A DNA stretch of 18,551 nt from Candidatus Eiseniibacteriota bacterium (GTDB lineage: Bacteria > Arandabacterota > Arandabacteria > Arandabacterales > Arandabacteraceae), in assembly GCA_043810925.1 (NCBI GenBank), contig JBDRNT010000022.1, positions 1-18,551 on the forward strand, in the 5' to 3' direction. The translations under genes and the position numbers were made by a program. The notes below the pieces were generated by a model, which was given only the letters and a program-made list of their open reading frames with translations, made no database searches and was not told where the DNA came from. How positions within the stretch are numbered: position 1 is the first letter of the stretch; every line of letters begins with the position of its first letter. Positions 246-14,464 of the stretch are shown here, piece after piece.

Positions 246-1853
246 TCAGTTTCTTTTCAACACGATGAGAGTCATGTCATCTGAGTACGGGCGGTCCTGC
301 CTGAACTGATCGACCGCGGAGAAGATGGCACCCCTTATGCCCTGGGCATCCTCCGACGAGGTGGTCGCCAGTACTTCCTCCAGTCTCTCTTCGCCGAACA
401 TGTCTCCATCCCCGTTCATGCATTCTGTTATGCCGTCGCTGTAAAGGACGAGCACGTCACCGGGGCCGAGTTGGGTTTCGGAAGTCTGATAGGTAATCTC
501 CGGCAGAATGCCGAGTGGCATTCCGCTGACCTCCAGGCAGGAAATGTCACCCGAGGACCTGCGCAACATCGGAGGATTGTGCCCGGCATTTGAATACCGT
601 ATCCTGTGCGTCGCCGGGTCGAGGATGAGATAGAACAGCGTTATGAATCGTCCTTCGCCGACGCGGCTGATCAGGTCGGAATTCAGTTTGCCGACCAACT
701 CGGACGGATTGATGTCCTCAGCCGCCCGGAGCCTGAGCAGGGCCTGGAGACTCGACATCAGCATCGCTGCCCCGATGCCCTTACCGGAAACATCCGCTAT
801 TGCTATGCCTGTGGTGTTACCCGTGGGCACTACGTCGTAGTAGTCACCGCCGACTTCCGTGCACGGCCGGTTGAAAGCCGAGAGATCATATCCCGGGATG
901 TCGGGAATATCCGACGGGAACAGGCCGGTCTGGATCTCGATTGCGATCTCCAGTTCTGCATCGAGTCTTCGCTTGTCGCGGGCAATGTCGGCAAGGAGCA
1001 CGTTCTCGATTTTTTCGGCTATCATCCCCGAAAGCGTCGAGAAGAACAAGAGATCGATATCGGTGAACTGCCGGTCGGGCTCGGTCGTATCGACATACAA
1101 GACTCCAACAGTCTTCTCGCCGTTCCATAGTGGTGTGCAGATTGCCGACCTTATCCTCAGACTGGCAATGCTCTCGCTCATCTTGAGGCTGTCATCGCCG
1201 GCGACATCTTTTATAAGAATAGCCTGGTTTTCCGCGATGGCCTTTGTTGCTATGGATTTACTTATGGCAAATGTGGTTTGCGTTCTTGTTCTTGAAATGT
1301 ATGCCCGGGGGACAAGTTCACCCTCGTCGTCCCGGAGCAATATGGCCGCCCTTTCCGCACTGGTCCTCTTAACGCACAGGCTCAAGACGGAATCCAGCAG
1401 ACTCTCCAGTGGCTTGTCCTGGACTATCTGCCGCGCGATGTCGGCTACCGTCTCGAGAAGTACTATCGGCGCCATCATCTTCTTGGGCGGGGAGGGTGCT
1501 GATAGACTCATGGTTGAAGATGGGGAGGCATCGCCGGTCTTGTCCTTGAGGAACGAGAACTTCTCAGACGGCTCGTATATGATTCTCGAATTCCCTATAC
1601 CGATCGTATCCCCGGGGGAGAGCTCCTTGAGCCCGGATATCTTCTCGCCGTTTACGAGCGTTCCGTTCCTGCTTCCGGTGTCCTGGACGCTATAGGAGCC
1701 GTTGGTCCGCAAGATCTCTGCATGCCTGCGCGAGGCCACGGGTTCATCGATACATATCTCACTCTCGGGGAGCCGCCCGATCCTGAGCGATTTCTTCTCG
1801 GTGGATACGAGCTTCTGCTCGCCCGTGCCGAGTATCACCAGAAATGATGCCAA
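246..1853 (-). CDS. FHA-GAF-SpoIIE (PP2C/RsbU-like) Ser/Thr protein phosphatase
   Basis: FHA motifs (IGR, SRRHA, D.GSRNGT), a central GAF (SAICTPL..VGVLYVD) and PP2C motifs (GGDYY, ADVSGKG, NAGH, YSDG, DDMT). TTG start preceded by GAGGTG. Confidence 0.93.
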   Translation of the reverse strand: MASFLVILGTGEQKLVSTEKKSLRIGRLPESEICIDEPVASRRHAEILRTNGSYSVQDTGSRNGTLVNGEKISGLKELSPGDTIGIGNSRIIYEPSEKFSFLKDKTGDASPSSTMSLSAPSPPKKMMAPIVLLETVADIARQIVQDKPLESLLDSVLSLCVKRTSAERAAILLRDDEGELVPRAYISRTRTQTTFAISKSIATKAIAENQAILIKDVAGDDSLKMSESIASLRIRSAICTPLWNGEKTVGVLYVDTTEPDRQFTDIDLLFFSTLSGMIAEKIENVLLADIARDKRRLDAELEIAIEIQTGLFPSDIPDIPGYDLSAFNRPCTEVGGDYYDVVPTGNTTGIAIADVSGKGIGAAMLMSSLQALLRLRAAEDINPSELVGKLNSDLISRVGEGRFITLFYLILDPATHRIRYSNAGHNPPMLRRSSGDISCLEVSGMPLGILPEITYQTSETQLGPGDVLVLYSDGITECMNGDGDMFGEERLEEVLATTSSEDAQGIRGAIFSAVDQFRQDRPYSDDMTLIVLKRN

Positions 1854-11259: not shown

Positions 11260-11832
11260 TTAGGCTACCGCATCGGCTCCAGCTTTGCGTGCTTGCGTCA
11301 TGACATCGGTGTTCGCGCGGACATCACCCTTATCGTAAGCGCCCGGGGCCAGTACCGAGGCGAAGAGCTCGGCCCCGACATAAGCGAGCGAGTCCTTGAA
11401 CATCCCCACCACATGACGACCGGTTTCAGGATCTGTGTCTCCCATGGGTACTGCAAGTATCACACGCCGGTTCTTGAAAACCTGCATATGTTCATCATCG
11501 CCGGCCTGTGAGAACCATCTGTCCACAAAGGCCTTGAGCTGCGCGCTCGGTCCCCACCAGTAGACCGGGGTTCCGAATACCCATACGTCGCTTGTCTTCA
11601 TCTTCTCAAACAGGCCTTGCATATCATCAGATAAAACACACACACCGCCCGGACGACACGCATAGCAGGCCTTACAGGGGCCGATGTCAAGATCGCCGAG
11701 CATCACCTTCTCCGTATCTGCTCCGGCCTCTTCAGCACCCTTCAGAATCTCATCCACGAGGATATCGGTGTTGCCGTTGCGACGTGGACTCCCCATGATG
11801 GCGAGCACCCGTTTGCGATCTGACGGTTTCAT
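11260..11832 (-). CDS. Flavodoxin-fold iron-sulfur flavoprotein / NADPH-dependent FMN reductase
   Basis: GSPRRNGNT, CKACYACRPGGVC (CX2CX2CX5C), DDM, GTPVYW, KAFVDR; SD GGAGG. Confidence 0.92.
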   Translation of the reverse strand: MKPSDRKRVLAIMGSPRRNGNTDILVDEILKGAEEAGADTEKVMLGDLDIGPCKACYACRPGGVCVLSDDMQGLFEKMKTSDVWVFGTPVYWWGPSAQLKAFVDRWFSQAGDDEHMQVFKNRRVILAVPMGDTDPETGRHVVGMFKDSLAYVGAELFASVLAPGAYDKGDVRANTDVMTQARKAGADAVA

Positions 11833-11917
11833 TCAGGCCTCCTGATTGTACGAGATGGCTGCCGGTTGCCGGTAGTGGATGATAGACCTGTTCCAAGGGT
11901 GAACAGGTGTTGCGTAA

Positions 11918-12046
11918 GGAACCAGGTGGGTTCCCCGCTCATAAGAACGTGCTCATTCAGTTTTGAACCCGGCGGCGTAACCATCCATGCAAGTGGGTCG
12001 GTCCAAAATCATGGGAGTTCACGTCCCACGCAGGGAACCCACTGGC
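11918..12046 (-). ncRNA. Rod-shaped ~125-nt structured RNA, probable short 6S-like RNA
   Basis: Starts right after a consensus promoter. Nested pairings: ccag/ctgg, tgggttccc/gggaaccca, acgtg/cacgt, ctc/gag, ttttggacc/ggttcaaaa. A further hairpin follows (11886-11908). Confidence 0.6.
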
Positions 12047-12050
12047 ACCC

Positions 12051-12079
12051 ATTGTACACTATATGACTCCCAGGGTCAA
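12051..12079 (-). promoter_or_regulatory. sigma70-type promoter for the structured RNA (and possibly the flavoprotein gene)
   Basis: Minus strand TTGACC (12079-12074), 17 bp, TACAAT (12056-12051). Confidence 0.75.
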
Positions 12080-12235
12080 GAACAATCCTACGAAGGCAGG
12101 TGATGGCAAGGATACGCAAAGGATAGTCAAGATCCGCAAAACCTTCGGCCTTTTGTGCCTCGGCCGGTGCGGGACACGGTGTACTTAGCCACCCATCGTG
12201 TAGTATAATGATAGAAACGTCACAGGGAGGCTGTC

Positions 12236-14464
12236 ATGGTGAGATGGCTGTGTGCAGTGATCGTACTGATCTTAGGCGGTCCCGTCCTCGCGGTTGCCGC
12301 TGACGAGTATTCCCGGGACTGCGCTATCAAGGAGGTCTTCGATGATCTCGACCGAACCCGGATTACGACCGGGATACTCTATGACAGAGTGATTCCGCTT
12401 TCGCATGTCACAGACTACGATGGCAGCCAAACATCGAGACCTATCAGGCCTAAGCACTGGAAGCAGATCTACTTTGAGATGTACCGGGCCTCTCTGGAGA
12501 CACCCGCGTGGCCCGATCTGCGGACACTTCTCAAGCAGATGGAGCGTGCAACAGCCGGTGGGATTGTGCCCGTCGCATTCATTGATCTCGAGTACACCAG
12601 CATCTGGTCCGATGCGCTTGAGGATGGATCGCTTACGATAGAAGCAGGCCGTCTGCGTGATGGGCCGGGCGATCCCTATATCGAGAATAGAGTCTTTGCC
12701 GTCACCGCCCTCAAGGACTATACCCATTGCGGCAATTCGATCACGTTCGCACTCGATCCGGCCTGGTATGTCACCGACTCAGGCATCCTGCCGGACAGGC
12801 TCGAGATGGATTTCGATGACGGTCTCGGTTTCCGGTCCGTGGAATTAGGTGCCAACTACCGAATTTCGTATCCGGCTGCCGGCCGGAAGCAGGTGCGGGT
12901 GAAAGCACATGCCGGTGACAGGACGGTCCTCTATGCCGCATTCAGTTTCAATGTTAAGACACTTCAGGCGCCGGTCCCCGATGACACCCTCGCGGTTACC
13001 GCGACCATACCCTATAACGGCGGTTTCGGGAGCGGGGAAGCATACCTCTATTACTCTGATTCACATGTTGTTCTCACTGACCCCGTGATCGTGGTCGAGG
13101 GGTTCGACATAGATAACAACATGAACTGGGAAGAGCTCCATGAGTACCTCAACCAGGAGGGTATGGTAGAGAGTCTGCGCACCGAGGGCTATGATGTCGT
13201 TGCCCTCAACTTTACGGATGCCACGGATTTCATCCAGCGGAATTCCTTTGTGCTGGTAGAGTTGATCCAGCAGGTCAACGCCATGATCGATCCCGGTACG
13301 GATATCGCCATGGTGGGGGCCAGCATGGGTGGTCTGGTCGGCCGGTGTGCCCTTGCGTACATGGAGACCAATGCGCTCGACCATAATACGAGGACGTTCA
13401 TCTCTTTCGATTCACCCCAGAACGGGGCAAACATACCGCTCGGACTACAGTACTGGGTCGACTTTTTCTCTGGAGACTCCGAGGATGCCGCTTATATGCT
13501 AGAAAGGCTGAACACGCCGGCCGCAAGGCAGCTGCTCGCATACCACCTGACCGATCCGCCCGGGACGACCGGTGAGAGCGACCCCCTGCGGACTGGCCTG
13601 CTTGCTGATCTTGCAGCGGTGGGGAATTACCCCCAGATTCCGCGGAAGGTGGCTGTCGCCAACGGCAGCGGCTCACGCGCAGATCAGGGTTTTGCCGCCG
13701 GGGACCAGGTGGTTTTCTATGAATACTACAGCCTGCTTGTCGACATCATCGGCAATGTGTGGGCGGTGCCCGACAGTGCCAACCAGACCGTCTTCCGCGG
13801 TGTCATGGATCTCATATGGCCGTTGCCGGATAGGCGGATGACTGTCGATGTTTCGGGAACACGCCCCTATGACAACGCCCCGGGAGGTTACCGGAATTCA
13901 ATGGCGCAGTTGGACTCGGCCGCGGCGCCGTACGGGGACATCGTCGCGCTTTATGACAACCACTGCTTTATCCCCACAATCAGCGCGCTGGCCCTCGATA
14001 CCGAAGATCTCTTCTACGATATCGCCGGGGATGCCGATCTTATGACACATACCCCGTTCGACACCGTCTATTATCCTGTTGTCAATGAAGGGCACATGGA
14101 AATCACGGCCGAGAGCGCAACCTGGTTCCTGACCGAGCTCAGGCGGGACGACGCGGCCGTACCCGGGCAACATATGCCGGTGCCGGAGGCGGCGGTCCTG
14201 TACCGGAATTCCCCGAATCCCTTCAGCCGGACAACCACGATCCGCTACTCGGTCGCTCGTCCGGAGAGGATACACCTTGATATCTACGATATCGAAGGCC
14301 GGAGGGTGGTAAGCCTTCTGGACCGGTCCGTGTCGGCCGGGTTGGGGCAGGTTGTCTGGGAGGGCACCGACGGGCACGGCAGAGACGTCGCCTCCGGGAT
14401 CTACTTCTGCCAGCTTTCGACCGCTGACGCGTGCCGCATGCAGCGTCTCGTCCTCCTCCACTAA
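12236..14464 (+). CDS. Secreted alpha/beta hydrolase (lipase/esterase-like) with FlgD-Ig/T9SS-like C-terminal domain
   Basis: Signal peptide; TGILYDRV; VVEGFD; nucleophile elbow GASMGG; SFDSPQNGANIP; HCFIPT.SAL; C-terminal PNPF...IYDIEGRRV...W.G.D...SGIYF; SD GGGAGG. Confidence 0.88.
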   Translation: MVRWLCAVIVLILGGPVLAVAADEYSRDCAIKEVFDDLDRTRITTGILYDRVIPLSHVTDYDGSQTSRPIRPKHWKQIYFEMYRASLETPAWPDLRTLLKQMERATAGGIVPVAFIDLEYTSIWSDALEDGSLTIEAGRLRDGPGDPYIENRVFAVTALKDYTHCGNSITFALDPAWYVTDSGILPDRLEMDFDDGLGFRSVELGANYRISYPAAGRKQVRVKAHAGDRTVLYAAFSFNVKTLQAPVPDDTLAVTATIPYNGGFGSGEAYLYYSDSHVVLTDPVIVVEGFDIDNNMNWEELHEYLNQEGMVESLRTEGYDVVALNFTDATDFIQRNSFVLVELIQQVNAMIDPGTDIAMVGASMGGLVGRCALAYMETNALDHNTRTFISFDSPQNGANIPLGLQYWVDFFSGDSEDAAYMLERLNTPAARQLLAYHLTDPPGTTGESDPLRTGLLADLAAVGNYPQIPRKVAVANGSGSRADQGFAAGDQVVFYEYYSLLVDIIGNVWAVPDSANQTVFRGVMDLIWPLPDRRMTVDVSGTRPYDNAPGGYRNSMAQLDSAAAPYGDIVALYDNHCFIPTISALALDTEDLFYDIAGDADLMTHTPFDTVYYPVVNEGHMEITAESATWFLTELRRDDAAVPGQHMPVPEAAVLYRNSPNPFSRTTTIRYSVARPERIHLDIYDIEGRRVVSLLDRSVSAGLGQVVWEGTDGHGRDVASGIYFCQLSTADACRMQRLVLLH

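Follow-up and report, generated by a model that had tools for sequence, protein, structure and literature searches.

What is encoded on the minus strand at 11921..12046 of the 18,551-nt window analysed here (positions 1 to 18,551 of contig JBDRNT010000022.1 of a Candidatus Eiseniibacteriota genome, called G000 below), where an RNA of about 125 nt with the fold of a single long rod is predicted between a promoter-like sequence and a flavoprotein gene? A first-pass annotation of the window had suggested a miniaturised 6S RNA, and as the alternative a cis-regulatory leader of the flavoprotein gene. We find that the rod is a member of an RNA family with four body types, found in two phyla, and not the resident 6S RNA, which the same genome encodes elsewhere. 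The reading favored here, to which we give about an even chance, is that the locus is a stand-alone gene for a small RNA, subtype A' of an uncatalogued Eisenbacteria-like family, the product of which is probably trans-acting and protein-binding.

The rod and its predicted promoter

The RNA is preceded by a putative sigma70-type promoter of its own, for which a promoter scan gave the -35 hexamer TTGACC (12074..12079, minus strand) and the -10 hexamer TACAAT (12051..12056, minus strand). The combined site, TTGACC-17-TACAAT at 12079-12051, agrees with the consensus in 10 of 12 positions and corresponds to the consensus promoter that the first-pass annotation had noted; within 1.6 kb the scan gave two promoter-like sites, compared with 1.1 expected by chance. 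From the usual spacing, transcription would start about 5-9 nt past the -10 hexamer, near 12046-12042, which is at the foot of the rod.

The rod body comprises the helices P1, P2, P2b, and P3 and an apical cap, as delimited by the minimum-energy fold and by two covariance models, R1 and R2, that are described below. In P1, the 5' strand (GCCAG followed by UGGGUUCCCUGC, 12030..12046) pairs with 11938-11921, where the 3' strand consists of GCGGGGAACCCA, a bulged C and CUGGU (11921..11938); the helix includes an invariant CCCUGC/GCGGGG block with a U-G wobble. The fold and helix map then give P2 (12027-12020 with 11951-11944, 5' strand GGGACGUG) and P2b (12017-12015 with 11954-11952, 5' strand CUC), followed by P3, in which UUUUGGACC (12000..12008) pairs with GGUUCAAAA at 11969-11961. 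The cap, placed by alignments and folds, covers the 30 nt from 11970 to 11999 (GACCCAC...GCCGCCG) and is without the second mini-hairpin (GACGC-loop-GCGCC) seen in type A and in the A' copies of genus g7. The helices of the first-pass annotation, tgggttccc (12041-12033) with gggaaccca (11935-11927) and ttttggacc (12008-12000) with ggttcaaaa (11969-11961), are exact in their minus-strand coordinates, as are the 30 nt that they enclose (11999-11970), and the acgtg/cacgt pairing between the outer and the inner block also reappears. So does an 8-bp hairpin 3' of the rod, ACCUGUUC-ACCCUUG-GAACAGGU (11886..11908, minus strand), which has the same sequence in the sister species. Because the CUAUCAUCC directly 3' of it is U-poor, this hairpin is no canonical intrinsic terminator, and it is absent from the terminator-like sites of the scan.

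For the 129-nt core (12048-11920), the rod is the minimum-energy structure (-57.4 kcal/mol, z -4.46), and none of 200 shuffled sequences folded as stably. The separately promoted, rod-shaped small RNA that had been predicted from the sequence is supported. Compensatory changes, which the first-pass annotation had named as a check, are present as well. In an alignment of 29 relatives of the types A, A', and B, which was fitted to the model and is therefore biased towards the structure, 94.2% of the cells are paired, compared with 31-55% when the partners are slid, both partners change in 9 of the 27 pairs, and the covariation score was reached by none of 500 shuffles. The changes on both sides lie in P1 (6 of 12 pairs) and P2 (3 of 8 pairs), while P3 is 98.5% paired and has none; for P2b, covariation can be followed by eye (CUC/GAG, CUUCG/CGAAG, CCUC/GAGG, UUCCU/AGGAA). 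The same three helices came out of a MAFFT alignment of 12 sequences to which no model had been fitted. Type C, with 65 sequences likewise aligned without fitting, is 96.7% paired (37-53% when slid) with seven pairs changing on both sides, the columns of the outer helix and of CGUG/CACG being uninformative since they were set by the search pattern.

A further complementarity was noticed by eye in subtype A', where the 5' strand of P1 (CCAGUGGG in the window, CUGGUGGG in the copy on contig C26) could also pair with the start of the cap (CCCACUUG and CCCACCAG, respectively). The segments concerned are 12046-12038 and 11998-11991 in the window and 13-21 and 56-64 in L003, the excised locus (L-number) of the C26 copy, and the difference between the two A' paralogues preserves the pairing. 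An alternative conformation is possible on this basis.

Four body types in two phyla

A BLASTN search found a second copy in G000, the nearest within the genome, with 76% identity over 116 nt. Of 60 other genomes, 10 had relatives, and these all belong to the family and order of the window. The covariance model R1, which was built from 12 BLASTN-found sequences including the window, extended this to 45 distinct loci, spread over all 16 genomes of the window's order, and matched 17 of the 18 genomes by which its class and phylum are represented in the collection. G000 itself carries five diverged paralogues, two of type A' and one each of types A, B, and C. In the R1 search of this genome they scored 113.9 bits (the window, contig C22), 106.3 bits (C68:24714-24848), 106.1 bits (C26:9-139, the other A' copy), 57.9 bits (C67:5999-6127), and 38.8 bits (C8:6188-6312, type C).

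Of the 45 loci, 39 were analysed further, five assigned to type C by R2 and one contig-end fragment being left out, and were grouped by the RNA body (score tier and cap sequence) without use of the promoter. Subtype A comprises 15 copies with the cap CCGAUCCUCG..AGGA..GACGC-loop-GCGCC, and subtype A' five copies with the cap CCGACCCAC (the window, the sister species, two genomes of genus g7, and the C26 copy). The nine copies of subtype B are divergent, and the ten of subtype C have the signature GGGCUGAUCUCC. All subtypes form one long imperfect hairpin with conserved blocks on both strands, at the base of which lies the invariant helix GUUCCCUG/CGGGGAAC with its U-G wobble; the paralogues differ mainly in the apical cap and in the promoter. 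In a tree, C is a clade (100/100) and a paraphyletic A encloses A' together with B (93/95), with four changes of subtype label where the minimum is three.

The exact pattern of the invariant columns occurs in 103 stretches of a collection of 185,579 species. Among the 80 of these that were listed, reading of the sequences distinguished 65 type C-like rods, six of type A, and nine chance-like stretches, for example in Streptomyces, Nocardia, and Lachnospiraceae; the listed type C-like rods are mostly in records titled Candidatus Eisenbacteria. The seed of the second model, R2, consists of 65 type C sequences (64 from the pattern scan and one from G000) and contains no A, A', or B sequence. At E<=1e-4 the model matches 111 of 151 genomes drawn evenly from the Eisenbacteria phylum, mostly with one copy each, a count that includes one genome flagged as unpublished (G079) and becomes 110 of 150 without it. 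Among 101 relatives of G000, R2 matches all 18 genomes of the window's phylum and three of the 83 others. Type A loci are matched at 36-48 bits, and the window copy is matched end to end (12044-11924, minus strand) with 38.0 bits and E 6e-11 (44 kb searched, filters off), where the E-values of both models are rough owing to a quick calibration. Since R2 recognises type A and the window without having A, A', or B in its seed, the subtypes are one family. R1 gave no match in five Eisenbacteria genomes, in a search that scored only 150 of more than 1000 candidates; the link to the Eisenbacteria phylum therefore rests on R2. In one distant genome of the phylum (G017), two R2 matches of equal score lie 10 kb apart (C7:54707-54815 and C7:64804-64912), which suggests a recent duplication of a type C locus.

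The subtypes also differ in what lies upstream of them. Motifs were counted within 110 nt upstream of the body, with 5000 random 122-nt windows from the same loci as background. A sigma70-like pair (TTGACA with at most one mismatch, a spacer of 16-19 nt, and a -10 element with A2 and at least four of six matches) precedes 10 of 15 copies of A and four of four copies of A' (background 4.4%), the fifth A' copy, on C26, being left out because it is cut by the contig end. TTGAC(C/G) and TACAAT are kept in all four A' copies with upstream sequence. Upstream of type B, eight of nine copies have a motif like that of extracytoplasmic function (ECF) sigma factors (G[AG][AT][TC]C-N15-19-TCT[AC]A, ending 1-4 nt inside the model start; background 1.1%), and type C has the sigma54 motif GGCA[CT]-N5-NTGC in 10 of 10 copies (background 0.8%). 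Matches across subtypes amount to one extra only, which overlaps a sigma54 site. A stricter sigma54 pattern was found within 130 nt of 48 of the 65 type C loci of the pattern scan. The window copy, with its sigma70-type motif, does not belong to the sigma54-dependent small RNAs, which have a -24/-12 promoter (GG-N10-GC) at a fixed distance upstream. The genome encodes rpoN and has 14 matches to a sigma70/ECF model. The promoter classes are motif matches and hence predicted promoters.

The presence of five loci in one genome, one of them at the end of a contig and next to an unannotated open reading frame (ORF) of 219 aa, could be taken to mean that the rod is a hairpin formed by chance, the remains of a mobile element, or a repeat without function. 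The first-pass annotation had held a multicopy repeat to be incompatible with its reading, and the element is indeed multicopy. However, the copies within the genome are diverged paralogues with predicted promoters of their own rather than a repeat: they are at most about 76% identical, with compensatory changes, each subtype has its own predicted promoter class at a fixed distance, orthologues hold their position across genera (type A by guaA, for example), and the family is found in two phyla. We regard this explanation as barely credible.

No paper on such an RNA was found in the open-access literature on Eisenbacteria, on 6S-like RNAs, and on sigma54-dependent small RNAs. If real and expressed, the family would give two uncultured phyla, for which no small RNA was found described, a conserved RNA of this kind, and one RNA scaffold behind three promoter classes per genome would be an unusual arrangement and a natural experiment on the rewiring of paralogues. 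The models R1 and R2 allow the labelling of loci that would otherwise be called weak 6S matches.

6S RNA and candidate protein partners

6S RNAs are about 180-200 nt long and consist of two irregular arms around a large, two-sided central bubble. The rod shares with them (RF00013) the separate promoter and the long imperfect helix with its CCCUGC/GCGGGG base and U-G wobble, the base of the closing arm being conserved from E. coli to these bacteria. It differs in its length (about 125 nt compared with about 185 nt), in having one arm and neither the two-sided central bubble nor the '-35' arm (the consensus structures of 12 and of 29 relatives show the three stacked helices only), and in belonging to a multicopy family in which some paralogues have sigma54- or ECF-type motifs.

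At gathering thresholds, Rfam gave no match in the whole window. In a permissive search of 601 nt, RF00013 was the best of three matches, with 24.4 bits (cut-off 46.4) and E 0.006; the alignment keeps both ends of the model and replaces 94 central positions by 22 nt. This weak similarity is the only likeness of the family in Rfam 15. It is somewhat stronger in type C (37.4-40.4 bits, E about 1e-6 per genome) and there also stays below the cut-off. The window RNA is not the 6S RNA of its genome: the canonical gene, for which the first-pass annotation had advised a check, is present at C161:105638-105827 with 85.9 bits. Canonical 6S RNAs above the cut-off occur in 15 of the phylum's 18 genomes, among them all 10 of high quality, and in four of five Eisenbacteria genomes tested. 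The earlier suggestion of a 6S-Flavo form did not hold either. Like the window RNA, 6S-Flavo is a rod that is short and 6S-like, and it comes from the Fibrobacterota-Chlorobiota-Bacteroidota group, to which we take the lineage of the window to belong, and in Bacteroidota it stands in for 6S, whereas G000 has a canonical 6S RNA as well. RF01685 (gathering score 85 bits) had no match at E<=10 in 11700-12300 and none at E<=1 in the genome. Identity with the signal recognition particle RNA was ruled out, as that RNA of G000 lies elsewhere (C94, 80 bits).

The weak likeness of the rod to 6S concerns one arm. On the 5' side, its strand has about the length of the 6S closing arm (41 and 44 nt), with the blocks in the same order, and in the window the rod can be aligned collinearly with that arm of the 6S RNA that G000 encodes, with 27/44 and 31/46 identities and z 4.07. 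In 33 comparisons of a family member with the 6S RNA of its own genome the mean z is 2.19, with 12 values above 3 that include all eight type C members compared; the mean score of the arm alignment is 10.9 for correct and 5.0 for swapped arms, where the cutting of the 6S arms was crude for some genomes. The first-pass view of the rod as 6S-like stands in part, RF00013 being the sole family matched and the rod being collinear with the closing arm at about 60-67% identity; there is no gathering-level match. Against its more specific form, a short 6S RNA or 6S paralogue with a collapsed arm, stand a score below the gathering cut-off and the lack of a central bubble and of a second arm.

A true miniature 6S RNA would bind the holoenzyme in the active-site channel, sequester it, and template product RNAs for its release. 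The match to RF00013 with both ends aligned and the agreement in arm length and block order fit this explanation, as does the motif UGGACCGA(U/C) of the rod, which is presumably placed like GAGCCGAU of the E. coli 6S RNA, the start of the product RNA. B. subtilis 6S-1 cut down to the bubble and two short arms is reported to cycle in vitro with about 10-fold lower affinity (PMC8876501), which also counts in its favor. However, every score is under the gathering score, there is no two-sided bubble and no second arm, and the 3' side of the cap, where the '-10' mimic would be, offers only a few nucleotides. In an Eisenbacteria member of type C (L120), the near-continuous hairpin has a 6-nt bulge instead of a bubble. 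Canonical 6S coexists with the family in the genomes counted above, and neither a reciprocal model match nor a profile match connects the two: R1, for instance, does not match the canonical 6S locus L001. A miniature 6S RNA is, in our judgement, unlikely.

The reading that we favor, a stand-alone small-RNA gene, takes the conserved duplex itself as the working part. We infer that transcription of the window locus yields a discrete RNA with an action in trans, and that the rod is a protein-binding duplex. It would offer a conserved double-stranded surface to a protein partner, and differently regulated paralogues would feed different signals into this one partner. Since the rod is collinear with the 6S closing arm, RNA polymerase, or another reader of that arm, is the leading candidate. 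That such RNAs stand alone is supported by type A, which has a GC hairpin with a U-run and faces the convergent guaA gene, and by the A' copies of genus g7, which have PAD_porph and convergent Na_Ca_ex as their neighbors.

Arrangements of this kind are familiar from other bacteria. In GlmY/GlmZ and other homologous pairs with sigma54 and sigma70 promoters, and in CsrB/C, RsmX/Y/Z, and CrcZ/Y, related small RNAs behind different promoters share one target or partner, and in decoy RNAs of the Csr/Rsm or Crc type, differently regulated paralogues feed their signals into one partner. The likeness to the rod family lies in the homologous copies behind different promoters and extends neither to sequence nor to structure: decoy RNAs have many repeated single-stranded sites (GGA or A-rich), whereas the rod is one long duplex with at most one GGA in the cap. 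With at most one GGA per RNA, a decoy of the CsrA type is unlikely. Among the 6S-like RNAs that lack similarity at the Rfam level, scr3559 of Streptomyces coelicolor is single-copy and of 6S size. It is reported as 6S-like by shape and not by sequence (PMC8539372).

Several points weigh against the favored reading. The promoter, the RNA ends, and the action in trans are all inferred for the window RNA, and the window copy has no convincing terminator, so that it could act in cis here. The connection to 6S is thin outside the arm comparison: in a 22.5-kb Rfam search, 6S appeared at E<=1 in only one of seven family loci, an nhmmer profile of 19 canonical 6S RNAs reached at best 7.8 bits (E 3.2) among 39 members, and R2, run with filters off on 19 canonical 6S loci, gave only unrelated hairpins. 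The most 6S-like block is the basal helix. The terminal closing stem of 6S is reported to be dispensable for RNA polymerase binding, and sigma to contact the 3' strand of the bubble and the '-35' arm (PMC8876501); the rod is without both of these regions. What the rod and 6S have in common is therefore the part least tied to polymerase binding, and the likeness to an arm that is reportedly dispensable for it raises the question whether another factor reads this arm.

A more far-reaching reading has miniature 6S-arm RNAs dock in the downstream-duplex channel of RNA polymerase without a sigma70 '-35/-10' mimic, with a different holoenzyme (sigma70, ECF, or sigma54) for each paralogue, so that they act as decoys that shift sigma competition. 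We consider this improbable; if true, it would be an RNA layer of sigma-factor cross-talk that was previously undescribed.

Base pairing, neighboring genes, and cis action

A base-pairing regulator would use the rod as a stabilising scaffold only, while a conserved stretch left unpaired would bind mRNAs, at Shine-Dalgarno sites for instance. Candidates for this stretch are the cap motif GAUC(C/U)(U/C)C or GACCCAC and the C(U/C)GAAUAG of the 5' tail in types A and C. By reading, the C/U-rich cap motifs GAUCUCCU, GAUCCCCCU, and GAUCCUC look similar to anti-Shine-Dalgarno sequences, and the 5' tails of A and C have the GAAUAG box in common. Base-pairing regulators also typically come as sibling small RNAs with stress-type promoters. 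Conservation, however, peaks in the paired strands and not in the loops, the cap differs by subtype, and the window copy has neither the GAAUAG tail nor GAUCCUC. Scanning G000 for complements of the tail and cap motifs gave nothing notable, three ACCACTGAATAG matches lying inside a repeated element and being chance-like. Such a regulator appears doubtful to us, though worth keeping in view. As observations from the same motif scan and loci, G000 has three closely similar copies of a repeat (C26:15700-16250, C44:720-1270, and C88:5390-5940), on the opposite strand of which the start of an ORF appears similar to the N-terminus of a transposase, and the predicted 5' tails of type A (L024, L026, L028, and L032, for example) carry, at 30-45 nt upstream of the rod, a CCGAAUAGCG box along with two to four copies of the repeat AGCG(A/G)A.

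The gene downstream of the rod in the window (11260..11832, minus strand, from the ORF list) encodes a 190-aa protein of the FMN_red or flavodoxin-like fold (Pfam PF03358 1.1e-24, PF02525 1.4e-16), which is the iron-sulfur flavoprotein of the first-pass annotation. In G000 and in the sister species it starts 88 nt 3' of the rod on the same strand, and the scan gave neither a promoter-like site nor a terminator between the two. In these respects, and at any rate for the genus of the window, the rod could be a cis-acting leader of the flavoprotein gene, working as a riboswitch or an attenuator. When the downstream leader is folded along with the rod (226 nt), the minimum-energy structure is also a different one, in which the cap pairs over a long range with the leader. 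When the sequences were read, however, the partner was found to differ in the sister species, and this pairing was rejected as not conserved. Searches of Rfam with the window and, permissively, with 601 nt gave no match to a riboswitch family. Family-wide, the cis-leader alternative of the first-pass annotation fails: FMN_red lies downstream of two of five A' copies only, both in one genus, and beside none of the seven type A and nine type B contexts examined, and many copies have a terminator of their own and face convergent genes. As the neighboring genes differ among copies, the family is not the leader of one gene class, and we hold a dedicated cis-acting leader to be very unlikely even for this locus. 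Since the hairpin has no U-run and no second promoter was seen, transcription may run on into the flavoprotein gene, and in the genus of the window the RNA may thus double as the 5' portion of the flavoprotein mRNA.

The surroundings of the other copies are as follows. In type A, the three downstream ORFs scanned (L033, L024, and L030) are all guaA on the opposite strand and the two upstream ORFs scanned (L033 and L030) are secA, and most copies have a GC hairpin with a U-run that faces the convergent guaA. In genus g7, type A' is flanked by a PAD_porph gene on one side and by a convergent Na_Ca_ex gene on the other. The C26 copy (L003 1-139) is at the contig start, where only TATAAT is left of its promoter, and is followed by opposite-strand ORFs of 219 aa (326-985, minus strand; coiled-coil-looking) and of 164-178 aa, neither of which has a Pfam match. 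The neighbors of type B vary among the copies. Type C (C8:6188-6312, which is L045 1989-2113, minus strand; orthologues L029, L038-L043, L050, and L051) is located 3' of a RACo gene and before a PduL-type gene, which encode a corrinoid reductive activator and a phosphotransacylase, respectively. Upstream of it are a TGGCAC-N5-TTGCA site and a ACAACUGAAUAG box, and the PduL-type gene has a separate TTGACA..TAACCT site between the RNA and the gene. In the Eisenbacteria phylum, an Opp/Dpp-type ATPase of the ATP-binding cassette class is encoded upstream of type C in three of seven loci; the other ORFs called at these loci had no Pfam match, the crude calling being unreliable at that G+C content. 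An enhancer-binding protein was not seen next to any family copy examined.

Two minor observations concern further neighbors. In the window, the second promoter-like site, ATGACA-18-TATCAT at 12208-12237 (minus strand), overlaps the start of a divergent ORF (12236-14464, plus strand, 742 aa), residues 1-448 of which gave only a weak match to Palm_thioest (2.6e-06). Beside type A RNAs, a cspA-like cold-shock gene is found in divergent orientation at L033 1926-2287 (plus strand) and L016 366-749 (minus strand), and there the Rfam cspA thermoregulator model gives sub-threshold matches of 36.4 and 30.5 bits (threshold 78), respectively, mostly over the coding part.

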